Origin: Escherichia coli
GTDB lineage: Bacteria; Pseudomonadota; Gammaproteobacteria; Enterobacterales; Enterobacteriaceae
Strand: one strand, 5' to 3'
Length of the DNA stretch: 15,478 bases
NCBI RefSeq assembly: GCF_003334815.1
Contig: NZ_QOWO01000055.1
Below, piece after piece: positions 1,740 to 15,478 of this stretch; the stretch's first letter is position 1; each line of letters starts with the position of its first letter. The position numbers were made by a program, and so were the translations under genes. The notes under the pieces were generated by a model. That model had not been told where the DNA came from. It did not search any database and saw only the letters and a list, made by a program, of their open reading frames with translations.

Positions 1740-2285
1740 ATGATGATTTTGGTGACGGGGGGCGCACGGAGCGGGAAGAGTCGCCACGCAGAGGCGCTTA
1801 TTGGGGACTCTTCACAGGTTCTGTATATCGCCACCTCGCAAATCCTTGATGACGAGATGGCTGCACGGATAGAACATCATCGGCAAGGCCGTCCGGCGCA
1901 CTGGCGCACGGTGGAGCGTTGGCAACATCTTGATGAATTAATTCATGCAGACATTAACCCGCATGAAGCTGTGTTGCTGGAATGCGTTACCACAATGGTG
2001 ACTAATCTGTTGTTTGATTATGGCGGCGATAAAGACCCTGATGAATGGGATTATCAGGCGATGGAACAGGCGATTAATGCTGAGATTCAGTCGTTGATTG
2101 CTGCCTGCCAACGTTGCCCCGCAAAGGTTGTATTAGTGACTAACGAAGTGGGAATGGGGATTGTGCCGGAGAGTCGTCTGGCACGACATTTTCGTGATAT
2201 TGCCGGGCGGGTAAATCAGCAGCTGGCCGCTGCGGCAAATGAAGTATGGCTGGTGGTTTCGGGTATTGGAGTAAAAATCAAATGA
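1740..2285 (+). CDS. cobU: Adenosylcobinamide kinase / adenosylcobinamide-phosphate guanylyltransferase CobU
   Basis: 181-aa ORF with P-loop GGARSGKS near the N-terminus; sequence and length match E. coli CobU as remembered; first gene of a cobU-cobS-cobT cluster. Confidence 0.95.
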
Positions 2286-3025
2286 GTAAATTATTTTGGG
2301 CGATGCTCTCATTTATTACGCGTCTGCCTGTACCGCGTCGCTGGTCCCAGGGACTGGATTTCGAGCATTATTCTCGCGGTATTATTACTTTTCCTTTAAT
2401 TGGATTATTGCTTGGCGCGATTAGCGGGCTGGTCTTCATGGTGCTGCAGGCATGGTGTGGCGTACCACTGGCGGCACTGTTTAGCGTACTTGTGCTGGCG
2501 CTGATGACCGGGGGATTCCACCTAGACGGCCTCGCCGATACCTGTGATGGCGTATTTTCTGCACGTAGCCGCGATCGCATGTTGGAAATCATGCGTGATA
2601 GCCGTTTAGGCACCCATGGCGGTCTGGCATTGATTTTTGTTGTACTGGCAAAGATTCTGGTATTAAGCGAGTTGGCTCTGCGTGGCGAACCGATCCTTGC
2701 ATCGCTGGCGGCAGCATGTGCGGTCAGCCGCGGGACTGCCGCATTATTGATGTATCGTCATCGTTATGCCCGGGAAGAAGGGCTTGGCAATGTGTTCATT
2801 GGCAAAATTGATGGGCGACAAACCTGCGTCACACTCGGCTTAGCCGCTATTTTTGCTGCCGTATTATTGCCAGGTATGCATGGTGTGGCTGCTATGGTGG
2901 TGACGATGGTGGCGATTTTCATCCTCGGTCAGCTTCTCAAACGTACGCTGGGCGGGCAAACCGGCGATACGCTGGGAGCTGCTATAGAGCTTGGTGAACT
3001 GGTCTTCCTGCTGGCACTGCTATAA
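2282..3025 (+). CDS. cobS: Adenosylcobinamide-GDP ribazoletransferase (cobalamin synthase) CobS
   Basis: Polytopic membrane protein. Start chosen at ATG 2282 ([11 protein letters not shown]...), giving 247 aa, rather than the ORF-track start at 2246; the ATG overlaps the cobU stop (ATGA at 2282-2285). Confidence 0.93.
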
Positions 3026-3036
3026 AGAGACGTGAC

Positions 3037-4116
3037 ATGCAAACACTTGCCGATTTACTGAATACGATCCCTGCTATCGATCCTGCCGCTATGTCGCGTG
3101 CACAACGGCATATTGACGGGTTACTCAAACCTGTTGGTAGCCTGGGAAGGCTGGAGGCGCTTGCCATACAACTGGCGGGAATGCCGGGGTTGAATGGCAT
3201 ACCGCATGTGGGCAAAAAAGCGGTACTGGTTATGTGTGCCGATCACGGCGTCTGGGAGGAAGGGGTCGCTATTTCCCCAAAAGAAGTGACAGCCATTCAG
3301 GCTGAAAATATGACCCGCGGAACAACCGGCGTGTGTGTGCTGGCAGCACAAGCGGGCGCTAACGTCCACGTAGTTGATGTTGGTATTGATAGTGCTGAGC
3401 CTATCCCCGGGCTTATCAACATGCGTGTCGCACGAGGTAGCGGCAATATTGCTTCAGCTCCGGCAATGAGTCGCCGTCAGGCTGAAAAGTTGCTTTTGGA
3501 CGTCATATGTTATACGCGGGAGCTGGCAAAAAACGGTGTCACGCTGTTTGGTGTAGGTGAACTGGGGATGGCAAACACGACACCGGCAGCGGCAATAGTC
3601 AGCACAATCACTGGCCGGGATCCTGAAGAAGTGGTTGGGATTGGCGCAAACCTGCCGACAGATAAACTGGCTAATAAAATTGATGTTGTGCGCCGGGCGA
3701 TTACGTTGAATCAACCAAATCCGCAGGATGGCGTTGATGTTCTGGCAAAAGTGGGGGGATTTGATTTGGTCGGAATGGCTGGCGTGATGTTAGGCGCTGC
3801 TTCCTGCGGTTTACCCGTGTTGCTGGATGGATTTCTTTCTTATGCTGCTGCGCTCGCAGCCTGCCAGATGTCTCCTGCAATCAAACCGTATCTCATTCCT
3901 TCTCACCTGTCGGCAGAAAAAGGGGCGCGTATAGCGCTGTCGCATTTGGGGCTGGAGCCTTATCTCAATATGGAGATGCGTTTAGGTGAGGGGAGTGGCG
4001 CAGCTCTGGCGATGCCCATCATCGAAGCTGCCTGTGCGATATATAACAACATGGGCGAACTTGCTGCCAGTAATATTGTTCTACCGGGGAATACGACTTC
4101 TGATTTGAACAGTTAA
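3037..4116 (+). CDS. cobT: Nicotinate-nucleotide--dimethylbenzimidazole phosphoribosyltransferase CobT
   Basis: 359-aa ORF ([40 protein letters not shown]...), 11 bp downstream of cobS; matches E. coli CobT as remembered. Confidence 0.95.
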
Positions 4117-5113: not shown

Positions 5114-5135
5114 GAGCGTTGGTAATTAGAAAGCA

Positions 5136-5164
5136 AAAAGCCTGCTAGAAAGCAGGCTTTTTTG
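5136..5164. terminator. Bidirectional rho-independent terminator between ldtA (+) and tRNA-Asn (-)
   Basis: Stem AGCCTGCT (5139-5146), loop AGAA, stem AGCAGGCT (5151-5158), flanked by an A-run upstream and a T-run downstream, so it works in both directions. Confidence 0.7.
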
Positions 5165-5168
5165 AATT

Positions 5169-5244
5169 TGGCTCCTCTGACTGGACTCGAACCAGTGACA
5201 TACGGATTAACAGTCCGCCGTTCTACCGACTGAACTACAGAGGA
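5169..5244 (-). tRNA. asnV: tRNA-Asn (anticodon GUU)
   Basis: Reverse complement is TCCTCTGTAGTTCAGTCGGTAGAACGGCGGACTGTTAATCCGTATGTCACTGGTTCGAGTCCAGTCAGAGGAGCCA, 76 nt with encoded CCA and anticodon loop CTGTTAA. Gene name assigned by synteny (between nac and erfK in K-12). Confidence 0.96.
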
Positions 5245-5514: not shown

Positions 5515-5569
5515 GTCTGGTTGTAAGTAATGGCGGCACTTGGGCCGATTCTCAAAAACCGGAGGCAAC

Positions 5570-6487
5570 ATGAACTTCAGACGCCTGAAATACTTCGTAA
5601 AAATTGTAGATATTGGTAGCCTGACTCAGGCTGCTGAAGTATTGCATATCGCACAACCAGCGCTCAGCCAGCAGGTTGCCACACTGGAAGGTGAGTTAAA
5701 TCAACAACTTTTGATTCGCACAAAACGGGGCGTTACGCCAACAGACGCCGGAAAAATTCTCTATACCCATGCGCGGGCCATTTTACGTCAGTGTGAGCAG
5801 GCCCAACTGGCGGTGCATAACGTTGGTCAGGCATTATCGGGGCAAGTCTCGATTGGCTTTGCGCCAGGAACCGCTGCGTCATCTATCACCATGCCCTTAT
5901 TACAAGCGGTTCGCGCTGAATTCCCGGAGATCGTTATCTATCTTCATGAAAATAGCGGTGCAGTGCTTAACGAAAAACTGATAAATCACCAACTCGATAT
6001 GGCGGTGATTTATGAGCATTCCCCTGTGGCTGGGGTATCCAGTCAGGCTTTGCTGAAAGAAGATCTTTTCCTGGTAGGAACTCAAGATTGCCCGGGGCAA
6101 AGCGTTGATGTTAATGCTATTGCGCAAATGAACCTCTTTCTCCCCAGTGATTACAGTGCTGTTAGACTTCGTGTTGATGAGGCTTTTTCCCTACGGCGGC
6201 TCACGGCAAAAGTCATTGGTGAAATTGAGTCTATTGCCACGCTTACCGCAGCGATTGCCAGCGGCATGGGCGTTGCAGTATTACCCGAATCGGCCGCGCG
6301 TTCGTTATGTGGCGCAGTAAATGGGTGGATGTCACGCATTACCACGCCTTCCATGAGTCTCTCTTTGTCATTAAATTTACCCGCCAGAGCGAACTTATCG
6401 CCACAGGCACAGGCAGTGAAAGAGTTGTTAATGTCAGTGATTAGTTCTCCAGTGATGGAAAAAAGGCAGTGGCAATTGGTGAGCTAA
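5570..6487 (+). CDS. nac: LysR-family nitrogen assimilation control protein Nac
   Basis: Start at ATG 5570 (MNFRRLKYFVKIVDIGSLTQAAEVLHIAQPALSQQ...), 305 aa, matching E. coli Nac as remembered. The ORF-track start at 5540 is a TTG extension. RBS GGAGG at 5561-5565. Confidence 0.93.
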   Translation: MNFRRLKYFVKIVDIGSLTQAAEVLHIAQPALSQQVATLEGELNQQLLIRTKRGVTPTDAGKILYTHARAILRQCEQAQLAVHNVGQALSGQVSIGFAPGTAASSITMPLLQAVRAEFPEIVIYLHENSGAVLNEKLINHQLDMAVIYEHSPVAGVSSQALLKEDLFLVGTQDCPGQSVDVNAIAQMNLFLPSDYSAVRLRVDEAFSLRRLTAKVIGEIESIATLTAAIASGMGVAVLPESAARSLCGAVNGWMSRITTPSMSLSLSLNLPARANLSPQAQAVKELLMSVISSPVMEKRQWQLVS

Positions 6488-7576: not shown

Positions 7577-7652
7577 TGGCTCCTCTGACTGGACTCGAAC
7601 CAGTGACATACGGATTAACAGTCCGCCGTTCTACCGACTGAACTACAGAGGA
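7577..7652 (-). tRNA. asnU: tRNA-Asn (anticodon GUU)
   Basis: Identical 76-nt sequence to the other two tRNA-Asn copies (reverse complement of 7577-7652). Name by synteny (between cbl and yeeO). Confidence 0.96.
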
Positions 7653-7668
7653 ATCGCTGTTGAGGCAC

Positions 7669-7696
7669 ATCTTAACGGCGAAAAATCTTTTGTCAA
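7669..7696 (-). promoter_or_regulatory. Sigma70 promoter of tRNA-Asn (asnU)
   Basis: Minus strand: -35 TTGACA (7691-7696), 16-bp spacer, -10 TAAGAT (7669-7674), GC-rich discriminator GTGCCTC, then tRNA. Confidence 0.6.
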
Positions 7697-7812
7697 ACCC
7701 GATTTTTAAATTTCCCAACTGTTTGCCGTTTCTATCAACAGTTTGTTGCATTTGCAGACAATTTGTTGGCGAAAATCTTTGCAGCTTTGCTGATTCTCCC
7801 TCATTATTTGAA

Positions 7813-9300
7813 ATGTGGTTTCACTTTCTGCAATTAAGGTCGGCTTTGAATATCTCCTCTGCTTTACGCCAGGTTGTTCACGGCACTCGCTGGCACGCTA
7901 AACGCAAGAGCTACAAAGTGTTGTTCTGGCGCGAGATAACCCCGCTTGCTGTTCCTATCTTCATGGAGAATGCCTGTGTCCTGTTGATGGGTGTCCTGAG
8001 CACTTTTCTGGTCAGCTGGCTGGGAAAAGATGCGATGGCCGGCGTGGGATTGGCGGACAGCTTCAATATGGTCATTATGGCTTTTTTTGCTGCTATCGAT
8101 CTTGGTACTACTGTCGTTGTGGCATTTAGTCTCGGTAAGCGGGATCGACGACGAGCGAGGGTGGCGACGCGGCAGTCATTGGTGATCATGACGTTGTTTG
8201 CCGTACTGTTGGCAACGCTTATTCATCATTTTGGCGAACAAATTATTGATTTCGTCGCGGGTGATGCCACGACAGAAGTTAAAGCACTGGCGTTGACTTA
8301 TCTGGAGCTGACGGTACTCAGTTATCCAGCAGTTGCCATCACTTTGATTGGTAGCGGGGCACTTCGTGGTGCAGGGAATACGAAAATACCGCTACTGATT
8401 AACGGTAGCCTGAATATTCTTAATATTATTATTAGCGGCATATTGATTTACGGCCTTTTCTCCTGGCCGGGACTGGGATTTGTCGGGGCAGGGCTGGGTT
8501 TAACCATTTCTCGTTATATTGGCGCAGTTGCAATTTTGTGGGTGCTGGCGATTGGTTTTAATCCTGCGCTAAGGATTTCGTTAAAGAGCTATTTTAAACC
8601 GCTGAATTTTAGCATTATCTGGGAAGTCATGGGGATTGGTATTCCCGCTAGTGTCGAATCAGTGTTATTTACCAGTGGTCGGTTATTAACCCAAATGTTC
8701 GTTGCCGGGATGGGGACCAGTGTTATTGCCGGAAATTTTATCGCGTTTTCAATTGCGGCTCTTATCAACTTACCCGGAAGTGCGCTCGGCTCTGCTTCTA
8801 CGATCATTACAGGCCGAAGGTTGGGGGTAGGGCAGATAGCGCAAGCAGAGATTCAGTTGCGGCATGTGTTCTGGCTGTCCACTCTTGGATTAACGGCCAT
8901 CGCCTGGCTAACGGCTCCCTTTGCCGGGCTTATGGCATCGTTTTACACCCAGGATCCACAGGTTAAACATGTCGTTGTGATTCTGATTTGGCTAAATGCT
9001 TTATTTATGCCTATTTGGTCCGCCTCATGGGTGCTACCCGCTGGATTTAAAGGTGCTCGTGATGCCCGTTACGCCATGTGGGTTTCGATGTTGAGCATGT
9101 GGGGTTGTCGGGTTGTCGTCGGTTATGTGCTGGGAATCATGCTTGGCTGGGGTGTGGTTGGTGTCTGGATGGGAATGTTTGCCGACTGGGCTGTGCGGGC
9201 TGTGCTGTTTTACTGGCGAATGGTTACTGGACGTTGGCTATGGAAATACCCTCGACCCGAGCCGCAAAAGTGTGAAAAAAAGCCAGTTGTGTCGGAATAA
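7813..9300 (+). CDS. yeeO: MATE-family efflux transporter YeeO (reported flavin/dipeptide exporter)
   Basis: Start placed at ATG 7813 (MWFHFLQLRSALNISSALRQ...), giving 495 aa with multiple hydrophobic transmembrane segments. The ORF-track 546-aa version starts at TTG 7660 and runs through the asnU promoter. Confidence 0.88.
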   Translation: MWFHFLQLRSALNISSALRQVVHGTRWHAKRKSYKVLFWREITPLAVPIFMENACVLLMGVLSTFLVSWLGKDAMAGVGLADSFNMVIMAFFAAIDLGTTVVVAFSLGKRDRRRARVATRQSLVIMTLFAVLLATLIHHFGEQIIDFVAGDATTEVKALALTYLELTVLSYPAVAITLIGSGALRGAGNTKIPLLINGSLNILNIIISGILIYGLFSWPGLGFVGAGLGLTISRYIGAVAILWVLAIGFNPALRISLKSYFKPLNFSIIWEVMGIGIPASVESVLFTSGRLLTQMFVAGMGTSVIAGNFIAFSIAALINLPGSALGSASTIITGRRLGVGQIAQAEIQLRHVFWLSTLGLTAIAWLTAPFAGLMASFYTQDPQVKHVVVILIWLNALFMPIWSASWVLPAGFKGARDARYAMWVSMLSMWGCRVVVGYVLGIMLGWGVVGVWMGMFADWAVRAVLFYWRMVTGRWLWKYPRPEPQKCEKKPVVSE

Positions 9301-9400: not shown

Positions 9401-9476
9401 TCCTCTGTAGTTCAGTCGGTAGAACGGCGGACTGTTAATCCGTATGTCACTGGTTCGAGTCCAGTCAGAGGAGCCA
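9401..9476 (+). tRNA. asnW: tRNA-Asn (anticodon GUU)
   Basis: TCCTCTGTAGTTCAGTCGGTAGAACGGCGGACTGTTAATCCGTATGTCACTGGTTCGAGTCCAGTCAGAGGAGCCA. Name by synteny (between yeeO and yeeN). Confidence 0.96.
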
Positions 9477-10987: not shown

Positions 10988-12442
10988 TTATCGGAACGGC
11001 GGCTCATTAAAGGTTCGTAATTTACGCGAATGCAGTCGGTCGCCTTCTGCGCGCAGCAAATCGATCGCCCGAATGCCAATTTGCAGGTGTTCGGAAATAG
11101 CACCTTCATAAAAACGGTTAGCCTGACCGGGAAGTTTAATCTCGCCATGCAACGGTTTATCTGAAACACACAGTAGTGTCCCGTATGGCACGCGGAAACG
11201 ATATCCTTGCGCGGCAATGGTTGCACTTTCCATATCAATTGCTACGGCCCGGCTTAAGTTAAAACGAAGTGCAGAAGCTGAGTAACGTAATTCCCAGTTC
11301 CTGTCATCTGTGGTTACCACAGTACCAGTACGTAGCCGCTGTTTGACTTCCTCACCGGGCCTGCCACTCACCAGCTTGGTGGCGTCATAAAGCGCACGTT
11401 GCACTTCAGCAATGCTCGGAATAGGAATATCGGGCGGCAGAACCGCATCAAGAACGTGGTCATCGCGTAAATAAGCGTGTGCAAGTACATAATCGCCAAT
11501 GGCCTGACTTTCACGTAATCCGCCACAGTGACCAATCATCAACCAGACATCCGGGCGTAGCACTGCCAGATGATCGCAGATGGTTTTAGCATTGGAAGGT
11601 CCCACGCCAATATTCACCAGAGTAATACCCTGAGCATCGGCGGTAATTAAATGCCATGCTGGCATCTGGTGTTTTTTCCATGCAAGGTCGGAAATGGCTT
11701 CTTCTGGCGCTTCGGTTTCGGCGGTGATCCAGTTCCCGCCAGCACAAGAAAGGGCAATGTAAGGACTATCAGGATCGAGGATCTGGCTGCATCCCCAACG
11801 AACGAATTCATCCACATAACGTGTGTAGTTGGTAAACAAGACGAACGGCTGAAAATGTTCAACTGGCGTACCGGTATAATGGCGCAACCGTGCGAGGGAA
11901 AAATCGACGCGGCGCGCATCAAAATGCGATAGCGGGGAGAATTCCGTTGGATGATAAATGCCGTCTGCAGTTTCATCGCCAATTTGCGCCAGTTCTGTTG
12001 TCGGGAAGTAGCGAGTTAACCCAGCGCTCATTGAGCGATCAAGTGTCAATTCAGAGCCATCGATGACATAAGGATAAGGGATTTCATGCTGCGAGGGTTG
12101 CACAGAGATATGCGCACCATAATCCTGATACAGCAACGTAAGTTGTTCATTAAGATACGAACGAAAGAGAGTAGGGCGAGTAATCGTGGTGGTGTAGCTG
12201 CCTGCGTGAGTAAAACGACCAAATGCGCGCGTTTTGGGGGGATTGGTTGTGCTACCGTCCCAGGTTACGGTCAGTGATGGATAGACAAAAAGACCTTGTT
12301 TGCGGGCGTTTTCATCAGGTAATTCGCCACTTGTAATATAGTTGCCAATGGCGTTGCGTAATGCGACTACAGATTGCTCATACAGCGCGTCGAGTTTATC
12401 CAGTGCCTGAGCTGGGGTCAGACCGGAGCCCTTATTATTCAT
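10988..12442 (-). CDS. amn: AMP nucleosidase
   Basis: Start at ATG 12442 (MNNKGSGLTPAQALDKLDALYEQSVVALRNAIGNYITSGELPDENARKQGLFVYPSL...), 484 aa; RBS AGGAG just upstream on the minus strand. The ORF-track start at 12598 is an extension that overlaps the shiA 3' end. Confidence 0.93.
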   Translation of the reverse strand: MNNKGSGLTPAQALDKLDALYEQSVVALRNAIGNYITSGELPDENARKQGLFVYPSLTVTWDGSTTNPPKTRAFGRFTHAGSYTTTITRPTLFRSYLNEQLTLLYQDYGAHISVQPSQHEIPYPYVIDGSELTLDRSMSAGLTRYFPTTELAQIGDETADGIYHPTEFSPLSHFDARRVDFSLARLRHYTGTPVEHFQPFVLFTNYTRYVDEFVRWGCSQILDPDSPYIALSCAGGNWITAETEAPEEAISDLAWKKHQMPAWHLITADAQGITLVNIGVGPSNAKTICDHLAVLRPDVWLMIGHCGGLRESQAIGDYVLAHAYLRDDHVLDAVLPPDIPIPSIAEVQRALYDATKLVSGRPGEEVKQRLRTGTVVTTDDRNWELRYSASALRFNLSRAVAIDMESATIAAQGYRFRVPYGTLLCVSDKPLHGEIKLPGQANRFYEGAISEHLQIGIRAIDLLRAEGDRLHSRKLRTFNEPPFR

Positions 12443-12513
12443 GTGTGTCTCCTGTTCCATACAATTACCGCACATCCGATAGTATGTCACAGAAATGTGA
12501 AACAAAAGTGTAA

Positions 12514-12537
12514 GGCGAAGATCGGATGATCTTCGCC
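12514..12537 (-). terminator. Stem-loop just downstream of shiA (putative terminator, in the amn upstream region)
   Basis: Perfect 10-bp inverted repeat GGCGAAGATC / GATCTTCGCC with 4-nt loop GGAT, 7 bp past the shiA stop. Confidence 0.5.
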
Positions 12538-12543
12538 AGGCTA

Positions 12544-13860
12544 TCAAGCGCGTTGACTGTCTTTCATCAACAAAGCGGTCATTGCGGAAATCAGGCATCC
12601 AGCCAGCAAATAAATGGCGACGCTATGCCAGTTCCCGGCAAAGTAAGTGATGAGTGCAGCGGCAATAAAAGGTGTAAATCCACCGCCAACCACACTGGCA
12701 ACCTGATAACCGACTCCAGCGCCACTATAGCGATAACTGGCACCAAACATTTCGGTAAACATCGGTTGTTGCACACACACCACCATGTCATGCGCAATGT
12801 TTGCCAGCATTATGGAGAAGAAAACTATCCAGAAAATAGATTGTGCTTCAAGCGCCATAAAGAAAGGAAATGCGCTCAACGTTCCGATTAACGCACCTGT
12901 GATATAAACCCTACGGCGACCAAAACGATCGGCAAGCCAGGCAAAACAGGGAATTGTCAGGCAGCTTAATCCACCTACCAGCAAACCAATATTAAGGAAA
13001 AGTTCGCGCGGTAGCCCCATATTCTGGGTTGAATAATTAAGTGCAAAGGCAGTAACGATGTACATCGTCAGCAATTCGCACAGTCGTAGCGCAATAATCT
13101 TCAGGAAAGCACCGGGATGTCGTAACAGCGCTTCGATAACCGGGATGCGTTTTTTCGCGGCAGCTTGATAATGTTGCTGTTGTTCAAATTCCGCGGACTC
13201 TTCCATGCCATTGCGCACCCACAATGCTCCCAGTACCAGTACGATGCTAAACAGGAAAGGAATGCGCCAGCCCCAGCTTAAAAACTGTTCGTCAGTCGTC
13301 ATCATACTGATCAATGAAACCAGTCCGGTTGAAAGCAGTAAACCTACACCGTAGCCAACTTGTACACCGCTACTGTAAAAGGCTTTTTTATTTTTCGGTG
13401 CACTTTCAACGGAAAGCAACGCCGCGCCTCCCCATTCGCCGCCGACGGCAAATCCCTGAATGGCACGCAGTGTCACCAGCAAAATAGGTGCCCACCACCC
13501 AATGGTCGAGAATGAAGGAAGAATACCAATCAAGGCTGTCGCGATGCCCATCATCCAGACGGTCAGCATTAACATGCGCTTACGTCCCAGTCGGTCGCCA
13601 AAGTGACCGAAAATGACACCGCCGAGCGGACGGAAAAGGAATCCGACGCCAAAGGTAGCAAATGCGGCGAGCGTTCCCATCGCCGGGCTTACTTGCGGGA
13701 AAAACTCGCGATTAAACACCAGTGCGGCGGTGATGCCATAGAGTAAAAAATCATACCAGTCGACGACGGCACCAGCGAAGCTGCCTAACGCAGCTCGTCG
13801 GGCGCGACTTAACGAAAGCGTCCCTTCATCGGGACGAGTGGAGATGAGCGTGGAGTCCAT
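12544..13860 (-). CDS. shiA: Shikimate transporter ShiA (major facilitator superfamily)
   Basis: 438-aa polytopic membrane ORF (MDSTLISTRPDEGTLSLSRARRAALGSFAGAVVDWYDFLLYG...), MFS signature GHFGDRLGRKR; length matches E. coli ShiA. Confidence 0.93.
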   Translation of the reverse strand: MDSTLISTRPDEGTLSLSRARRAALGSFAGAVVDWYDFLLYGITAALVFNREFFPQVSPAMGTLAAFATFGVGFLFRPLGGVIFGHFGDRLGRKRMLMLTVWMMGIATALIGILPSFSTIGWWAPILLVTLRAIQGFAVGGEWGGAALLSVESAPKNKKAFYSSGVQVGYGVGLLLSTGLVSLISMMTTDEQFLSWGWRIPFLFSIVLVLGALWVRNGMEESAEFEQQQHYQAAAKKRIPVIEALLRHPGAFLKIIALRLCELLTMYIVTAFALNYSTQNMGLPRELFLNIGLLVGGLSCLTIPCFAWLADRFGRRRVYITGALIGTLSAFPFFMALEAQSIFWIVFFSIMLANIAHDMVVCVQQPMFTEMFGASYRYSGAGVGYQVASVVGGGFTPFIAAALITYFAGNWHSVAIYLLAGCLISAMTALLMKDSQRA

Positions 13861-14174: not shown

Positions 14175-14777
14175 ATGTTTTTAGCATCATTGTTGAGACG
14201 TATTGCATTTAGTTACTACGATTATAAAGCTTATAATTTCAATATTGAAAAAACAGACTTTGTTGTCATCCATATTCCCGATCAGATTGGCGATGCTATG
14301 GCCATCTTTCCTGTTATTCGGGCGCTTGAATTGCATAAAATTAAGCATCTATTAATTGTTACGTCGACAATTAATTTAGAAGTCTTTAATGCGCTCAAAC
14401 TTGAACTGACTAAATTAACATTAGTTACAATGACTATGCAGGATCACGCAACATTAAAAGAAATAAAAAATTTAGCGAAGAACATAACACTGCAATACGG
14501 TACGCCGGATCTTTGTATAGAGGCGATGCGTAAAAAGAACCTGAAAACGATGATATTTATCAGTCAGTTGAAAGCAAAAACGAATTTTCAGGTTGTTGGT
14601 ATAACCATGAATTGCTTCTCCCCTTTGTGCAAGAACGCGTCCCGTATGGATCAGAAACTCCGGGCTCCCGTACCTATGACATGGGCATTTATGATGCGTG
14701 AGGCGGGTTTTCCAGCAGTCAGGCCAATATATGAATTGAATCGCCACGGGTTTAACAGACACCTCAGAGTCATTTAA
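14175..14777 (+). pseudogene. yeeL: yeeL-like putative glycosyltransferase (family 9 heptosyltransferase-like N-terminal region), 3'-truncated remnant
   Basis: The 200-aa ORF has an N-terminal pattern resembling GT9 heptosyltransferases (VVIHIPDQIGDAMAIFPVIRALE) but is far shorter than the ~320-350 aa typical for the family. AT-rich body until about 14600, then a GC-richer tail that runs into the IS3-family element. Position divergent from shiA matches K-12 yeeL, which is a pseudogene there. Confidence 0.5.
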
Positions 14778-15050
14778 GATGACTTAAAGAGAGGTGCCCA
14801 TGAGTGGTAAGCGTTATCCCGAAGAGTTTAAAATTGAAGCAGTCAAACAGGTTGTTGATCGCGGTTATTCTGTTGCCAGCGTTGCAACACGTCTCGATAT
14901 CACCACCCACAGCCTTTACTCCTGGATAAAGAAGTACGGTCCGGATTCTTCCACTAATAAAGAACAGTCAGATGCTCAGGCCGAGATCCGCCGTCTCCAG
15001 AAAGAGCTGAAGCGGGTTACCGACGAACGGGACATATTAAAAAAAGCCGT
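14732..15050 (+). mobile_element. IS3-family insertion sequence (possibly IS600-like), 5' portion; left boundary approximate; interrupted at 15050/15051 by IS30
   Basis: Contains an IS3-family OrfA. Upstream sequence GGGTTTAACAGACACC carries the GGACAC-like motif common in IS3-family left ends. Left end placed 60-70 bp upstream of the orfA ATG by analogy; not verified. Confidence 0.55.
14800..15050 (+). pseudogene. IS3-family transposase OrfA (HTH plus leucine-zipper protein), C-terminally truncated by the IS30 insertion
   Basis: MSGKRYPEEFKIEAVKQVVDRGYSVASVATRLDITTHSLYSWIKKYGPDSSTNKEQSDAQAEIRRLQKELKRVTDERDILKKA, then reads into the IS30 end. Programmed -1 frameshift-type heptamer A_AAA_AAA at 15039-15045. 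The ORF-track start at GTG 14794 is 2 codons upstream. Confidence 0.75.
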
Positions 15051-15478
15051 TGTAGATTCAATCTGTCAATGCAACACCCCTTTCAATTATCTCTTTCGGT
15101 GTTTTGAACTTCAGTGTCTTTCTCGGTCTGTTGTTTAGCTGAGCAGCAACCAGATCTAGTTCATGTTGAGTATATTGGGCAAGACATGTCTTTTTAGGAA
15201 AGTACTGCCGAATTAGCCCATTTGTGTTCTCATTTGTTCCCCGCTGCCAAGGACTCTGAGGATCGCAGAAGTAAACTTTAACGCCGGTGCTGACAGTAAA
15301 TTCTAGATGTCTGGCCAGTTCCATTCCTCTGTCCCATGTCAGTGATTTTCTGAGTTCTGACGGTAAACTCAGGAATTTGTCGGTAAGAGCCTGATTTACT
15401 GAGACAGAATCTTTGCCCCTGAGTCTAAGGATGATCGTATAACGTGATTTTCGGTCTACAAGTGTGGCTATATGAGAG
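15051..15478 (-). mobile_element. IS30 insertion sequence, one end (terminal inverted repeat begins TGTAGATTCAAT at 15051); continues beyond the window
   Basis: The terminal sequence TGTAGATTCAATCTGTCAATGCAAC matches the remembered IS30 inverted repeat, and the adjacent ORF on the minus strand is the IS30 transposase C-terminus. Confidence 0.8.
15058..15478 (-). CDS. insI: IS30 transposase (DDE, IS30 family), C-terminal 139 codons; N-terminus lies outside the window
   Basis: The minus-strand frame is open from the window edge: SHIATLVDRKSRYTIILRLRGKDSVSVNQALTDKFLSLPSELRKSLTWDRGMELARHLEFTVSTGVKVYFCDPQSPWQRGTNENTNGLIRQYFPKKTCLAQYTQHELDLVAAQLNNRPRKTLKFKTPKEIIERGVALTD. It contains the IS30-family signature PWQRG-NENTNGL-RQYFPK. 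Confidence 0.85.
   Translation of the reverse strand, partial: SHIATLVDRKSRYTIILRLRGKDSVSVNQALTDKFLSLPSELRKSLTWDRGMELARHLEFTVSTGVKVYFCDPQSPWQRGTNENTNGLIRQYFPKKTCLAQYTQHELDLVAAQLNNRPRKTLKFKTPKEIIERGVALTD

Follow-up and report, generated by a model that had tools for sequence, protein, structure and literature searches.

In the window analysed here, a 15,478-nucleotide stretch of the Escherichia coli chromosome that includes the cobU-cobS-cobT operon, cobS is almost certainly translated from the ATG at 2282, yielding a 247-aa CobS. This start codon (2282–2284) overlaps the TGA stop codon of cobU (2283–2285) in the tetranucleotide ATGA. The overlap had been claimed in a first-pass annotation of this DNA and is read directly in the window sequence; the claim that cobT follows 11 nt after cobS was borne out in the same way (cobS ends at 3025, cobT starts at 3037). 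The junction is real but ordinary and already known, RefSeq having cobS at 2282. The whole account, in which cobS is translated from ATG 2282 and fed both by termination-reinitiation and by Shine-Dalgarno (SD)-driven de novo initiation, is very probable; judged from the arrangement, a material contribution of cobU-cobS coupling in vivo is fairly likely. The features concerned are as follows.

1740–2285, plus strand: cobU coding sequence, adenosylcobinamide kinase / adenosylcobinamide-phosphate guanylyltransferase, 181 aa (ORF, NCBIfam, RefSeq)
2246–2248, plus strand: upstream in-frame ATG, start of the longest ORF, rejected for cobS; arises from a synonymous cobU codon choice (GTA-TGG)
2268–2271, plus strand: GGAG, SD-like motif for cobS, within cobU Gly-Val codons (GGA GTA)
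2282–2285, plus strand: ATGA, 4-nt overlap of the cobS start ATG (2282–2284) and the cobU TGA (2283–2285)
2283–2285, plus strand: cobU stop TGA, closing the 181-codon ORF from 1740
2282–3025, plus strand: cobS coding sequence, adenosylcobinamide-GDP ribazoletransferase (cobamide synthase), 247 aa (TIGR00317, RefSeq, homologs)
3026–3036, plus strand: cobS-cobT spacer, 11 nt, agagacgtgac, with a weak SD-like GAGA
3037–4116, plus strand: cobT coding sequence, nicotinate-nucleotide--dimethylbenzimidazole phosphoribosyltransferase, 359 aa (NCBIfam, RefSeq)

The names cobU, cobS and cobT given in the first-pass annotation hold, as the products match NCBIfam equivalogs far over their cut-offs and RefSeq agrees at these coordinates. 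CobU scored 246.6 bits against NF004469 (cut-off 161), CobS gave a full-length equivalog match of 305.2 bits to TIGR00317 (cut-off 110), and CobT scored 471 bits against NF000996 and 395 bits against TIGR03160. By its profile, length (247 aa, in a family of about 240–260 aa), N-terminus and neighbours (cobU upstream and cobT downstream, each matching its own NCBIfam equivalog), CobS is a member of the cobamide synthase family (TIGR00317, Pfam PF02654), with the corresponding predicted activity. E. coli strain 52F4 matched a 1.6-kb segment covering cobU-cobS at 100% identity, and matches to this segment were present in 5416 of 5426 complete E. coli genomes. The RefSeq order in 52F4 and K-12 is cobU 1740–2285, cobS 2282–3025, cobT 3037–4116 and then ldtA (window coordinates). 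The K-12 pair (b1993-b1992) has an identical junction, with the 4-nt ATGA, a 247-aa CobS and the 11-nt spacer to cobT, and differs in strain-level polymorphism only (CobS 98.8% and CobU 98.3% identical). A PDB search by sequence for a CobS relative, by which the N-terminus could have been fixed, gave no match, and a search across the window for a B12 riboswitch or other RNA families returned three tRNA matches only. Five of the ~5400 matches to the cobU-cobS segment in the E. coli collection are on plasmid records, not chromosomes.

At the junction the cobU frame reads GGT ATT GGA GTA AAA ATC AAA TGA; the last A of the final cobU Lys codon together with TG forms the ATG at 2282–2284, in frame with the ORF ending at 3025. 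The tetranucleotide itself is ordinary (77 occurrences of ATGA on the plus strand of the window, ~72 expected from base composition), and it is its position and conservation that go beyond chance. The 4-nt overlap was kept in 56 of 56 Enterobacteriaceae species loci, which span Escherichia, Citrobacter, Salmonella, Raoultella, Kluyvera, Pseudocitrobacter, Buttiauxella and Intestinirhabdus, and within E. coli the 44-nt junction was 100% identical in 5213 of 5404 records. Salmonella, Citrobacter, Raoultella, Kluyvera and Buttiauxella share the ATGA overlap, the GGAG motif and the CobU C-terminus GIGVKIK. Residue 2 of CobS varies (Ser, Ile or Asn), its codon always beginning with A.

The GGAG at 2268–2271 lies 10 nt before the ATG at 2282, with a calculated anti-SD duplex of –5.9 kcal/mol. 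Of the 56 species, 54 encode the Gly within it as GGA, whereas two positions upstream all four Gly codons are in use (GGT 25, GGA 14, GGC 3, GGG 14), which indicates selection on the SD motif at a synonymous site. Initiation at this site can be read from published INRI-seq data, that is, ribosome profiling with retapamulin on synthetic transcripts of all K-12 genes, translated in the PURE system (PMC9825163). The annotated cobS site (K-12 position 2065222) was detected in five of five replicates at 43–104 CPM (PMC9825163, Table S2), roughly ten times the signal of cobU (7–12 CPM; PMC9825163). ATG 2282 is thus a working initiation site in vitro. Each template spans –30 to +153 of its gene, so that no cobU start is present on the cobS fragment; the strong cobS peak on such a fragment means that independent initiation is possible, at least with the fragment on its own and in a system of purified components. 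The in vivo Ribo-RET column for cobS in the same Table S2 has the value 0 (PMC9825163). In the part of the TRAINSPOTTER N-terminomics supplement that was available, cobU is listed and cobS is not.

A mechanically made ORF list started cobS at 2246, the longest ORF being 2246–3025 (259 aa), and the first-pass annotation had preferred the shorter form, a choice favoured by every test applied (profile, homologs, species DNA and SD motif). Translation from ATG 2246 would give a 259-aa protein with a 12-residue extension and a 40-nt overlap with cobU. This codon is the first ATG of the open frame and is retained throughout the seven E. coli-clade loci (L001–L007). However, the 12 extra residues fall outside the CobS profile: positions 1–241 of the 241 in TIGR00317 align to residues 13–258 of the long ORF, position 1 being Met2282. 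Nearly all of the best 120 database homologs of CobS are 247 aa long and cover 95% of the long form. In 118 full-length distant representatives (33–52% identity), the N-terminal stretch ahead of the conserved Arg of the (T/S)R(L/I)P motif is 12–13 residues long in 72. A start at 2282 gives CobS 13 such residues; a start at 2246 would give it 25, a value far out in the tail of the distribution. Neither close nor distant homologs share the longer N-terminus. At the DNA level, the in-frame upstream ATG is present only in the seven E. coli-clade loci and missing in the other 49 of the 56, and in 39 of 56 a stop codon stands in the cobS frame immediately 5' of the cobS ATG, because cobU ATT-AAA yields TAA in that frame. 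In most of the Salmonella, Citrobacter, Raoultella, Kluyvera and Buttiauxella species the penultimate cobU codon, an Ile codon, is ATT and not ATC, which puts TAA directly before the cobS ATG and leaves them with no long ORF. Nor does ATG 2246 have an SD motif like that of 2282, its anti-SD pairing being negligible (–1.7 kcal/mol), and RefSeq does not start cobS there. INRI-seq does not bear on this codon, since the template ends at –30 and ATG 2246 is at –36, outside the assay.

Codon differences were also counted, upstream of the junction in comparison with the 49 loci that do not belong to the E. coli clade. Across the 12 codons upstream of 2282, 222 synonymous and 5 non-synonymous differences were found in the cobU frame, and 0 synonymous and 272 non-synonymous in the cobS frame. 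Across cobS codons 2–12, the cobS frame showed 181 synonymous and 58 non-synonymous differences, and the continued cobU frame 7 and 243. Purifying selection therefore changes frame exactly at the ATGA. ATG 2246 is already refuted as a conserved start, and we regard it as an accidental in-frame ATG within the 3' end of cobU; that it starts cobS is extremely unlikely. The same frame switch excludes the downstream ATG at 2303 (Met8), which is in frame with cobS and would make the ATGA coincidental. Its anti-SD pairing is weak (–2.4 kcal/mol), the residues of cobS codons 2–7 are conserved and most changes in their DNA are synonymous, the profile and the homologs begin at Met1, and only 1 of the 118 distant homologs has an N-terminus as short as a Met8 start would give. 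The INRI-seq peak, moreover, is assigned to the annotated cobS start, and Table S3 of that study contains no alternative cobS site. The probability left to ATG 2303 is negligible.

Judged by their sequences, none of the longer database homologs supports a conserved CobS extension. P0006 (389 aa) is a chimera produced by a frameshift, on a single error-ridden contig; in P0043 the C-terminus is aberrant; and the canonical ATG is missing from P0097. The last of these, a Raoultella-like CobS from a JGI metagenome (..LNDQIILGYALFLSRLPVP compared with MIKLFWATLSFLSRLPVP), is called as 293 aa and extends deep into cobU; it may start at a non-ATG codon, or may reflect a local rearrangement or an error of assembly.

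On the comparison of loci, the long cobS ORF is an accident of the E. coli clade. There alone, two synonymous cobU choices open the 12-codon extension of the cobS frame: GTA-TGG creates ATG 2246, and ATC removes the TAA. The clade also has a run of five A at 2273–2277, where tRNA-Lys slipping by –1 would produce a CobU-CobS fusion. A programmed –1 frameshift on this run was considered and rejected as unsupported: other genera lack the run (GTC AAA ATT in Citrobacter and Salmonella), and the GGAG lies only 2 nt from it, a geometry not known to stimulate –1 shifts. P0006 is the sole fusion-like protein seen, and nothing found supports a fusion or extension reading; it is very improbable that a small share of CobS in E. 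coli carries an N-terminal extension, or is fused to CobU, and serves in regulation or assembly. The cobU-cobS junction is a clean case against taking the longest ORF as the gene, which misleads here because the frame under purifying selection switches at the ATGA. Its importance hardly goes further than annotation hygiene: there is nothing new in it, and what was done is a correct routine annotation check.

The arrangement suggests how cobS may be fed by cobU. The two genes are adjacent and co-directional with a –4 ATGA overlap, the structure of the stop/start-overlap class, and they also have a frequent though non-obligatory trait of overlap pairs, an SD motif with a 10-nt spacer inside the upstream gene. 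Because the ATGA merges the cobU stop with the cobS start, a ribosome finishing cobU would stop directly on the cobS initiation codon, and the GGAG 10 nt upstream, encoded by cobU Gly-Val, could hold the 30S subunit there. Two routes into cobS are thus proposed: re-initiation by ribosomes terminating on cobU, and ordinary SD-driven de novo initiation. Re-initiation would tie the output of CobS, a toxic membrane enzyme, to that of CobU. When over-produced, CobS is lethal to E. coli and dissipates its proton motive force; the enzyme has also been proposed as the anchor of a complex with CobU and CobC among its members (PMC8749415). The –4 ATGA overlap is the commonest configuration of E. coli co-directional gene pairs (PMC10666635). 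Re-initiation needs overlaps or very short distances and collapses at ~20 nt spacing, and pairs so arranged often code for subunits of a complex (PMC10666635). In reporter tests, 13 of 14 pairs with 4-nt or 1-nt overlaps were strictly coupled by termination-reinitiation, and some of these coupled pairs carry SD motifs (PMC6728339). The coupled pairs of these two studies resemble cobU-cobS in being co-directional, with a 4-nt ATGA and an SD inside the upstream gene; dependence on upstream translation was measured for them, whereas cobU-cobS is likened to them by arrangement (PMC6728339, PMC10666635). The classical trpB-trpA TGATG differs in having a 1-nt overlap, compared with 4 nt in cobU-cobS.

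The 4-nt overlap has no room for a terminator and a promoter between the genes, and a consensus scan found no promoter-like site near the junction. Weak terminator-like hairpins were seen within cobU at 2161–2186 and 2173–2187, the total of the scan being no higher than in shuffled sequence. An mRNA structure masking the cobS start was tried and rejected: the E. coli minimum-free-energy fold contains a helix AAAUGAG/CUCAUUU but is no stabler than shuffled sequence (z = +0.87), and the consensus fold of 20 species reached only –4.7 kcal/mol and did not contain that helix. With no significant or conserved masking structure, coupling of the unfolding type is without support.

Against a coupling function, the overlap could be a frozen compact junction, with cobS made essentially only by independent SD-driven initiation at ATG 2282. 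Strong initiation on an INRI-seq fragment without the cobU start is in keeping with this, as are the preservation of GGAG at a synonymous site and the accessibility of the cobS site, which no structure occludes. Conservation of the ATGA, moreover, cannot be read as selection for coupling, because the cobS start and the cobU stop already fix all four bases; under this double constraint any change destroys one or the other. However, the in vitro fragment is without its native polycistronic context, and the strict coupling of 13 of the 14 tested overlap pairs, some despite SD motifs (PMC6728339), weighs against an overlap without a coupling function. We consider such an overlap rather unlikely and prefer the account in which re-initiation and de novo initiation both contribute. 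A literature search on cob-operon coupling found no direct experiment on cobU-cobS, and one on cobUST evolution found nothing relevant. If true, coupling would be a simple means to keep toxic CobS proportionate to CobU, its proposed partner (PMC8749415); it would still be one further instance of a mechanism known for many E. coli gene pairs.

The cobS-cobT spacer (3026–3036) shows weak anti-SD pairing (–2.9 kcal/mol), and spacings of +9 to +12 form a second small peak among E. coli gene pairs (203 pairs; PMC10666635). Among the 38 loci with a located cobT start, 6 have the 11-nt spacer, and these belong to the E. coli clade. The spacer is 24–48 nt in the remaining loci (E. whittamii, Citrobacter, Salmonella, Kluyvera, Buttiauxella); the genera compared above thus differ from E. 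coli in this respect. Comparison with one of the E. coli-clade loci, L006 (taagactgattacctaagagacgcgacatg), suggests that ~13 nt were lost from the spacer in E. coli.

Some E. coli strains carry a 1-bp deletion in cobS at codon 17 (the G of CCTGTACC; L084:1145–1265 and L085:1145–1265, equivalent to window position 2330). In these strains, represented by a protein cluster of 710 member sequences (P0005), the ATGA junction is intact and cobS can no longer be read through in its canonical frame; gene-calling programs instead give a 242-aa product that starts at a TTG in a different frame (MGDALFYYASALPRRW...). In this lineage cobS is probably a specific pseudogene that has been mis-annotated as intact.

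E. coli keeps only cobUST of a larger cob operon. The region 5' of cobU (1–1606) contains decayed elements: a frameshifted IS3 transposase (1–251), an IS4 transposase fragment (1248–1436) and 162 nt left from the 3' end of a 'cobalamin biosynthesis protein' gene (1445–1606). This last remnant appears to be a relic of the larger operon lost by E. coli. K-12 has an intact IS5 instead at the position upstream of cobU. The start of cobU itself has two adjacent ATGs (1740–1745, MMILV...), with AGGAG 5 and 8 nt upstream of them. INRI-seq reported an alternative in-frame 'ATT +6' site for cobU in four of five replicates (PMC9825163); with the weak annotated peak, this makes the cobU initiation codon less certain than that of cobS.

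Further along the window, longest ORFs and annotated starts also differ: nac (5540–6487) has its longest ORF from TTG 5540 and a RefSeq start at 5570, yeeO (7660–9300) from TTG 7660 and 7813, respectively, and on the minus strand the amn ORF (10988–12598) extends to 12598 with annotation to 12442. Three tRNA-Asn (GTT) genes, each scoring 72.6 bits in Rfam, are interspersed among ldtA, nac, cbl and yeeO (5169–5244, minus strand; 7577–7652, minus strand; 9401–9476, plus strand). A strong hairpin with a T-run at 5135–5162 separates ldtA from the first tRNA and is a possible terminator for transcription from either side. At its right end (14175–15478) the window carries a truncated pseudogene of glycosyltransferase family 9, a fragment of a transposase and the beginning of an IS30 element.
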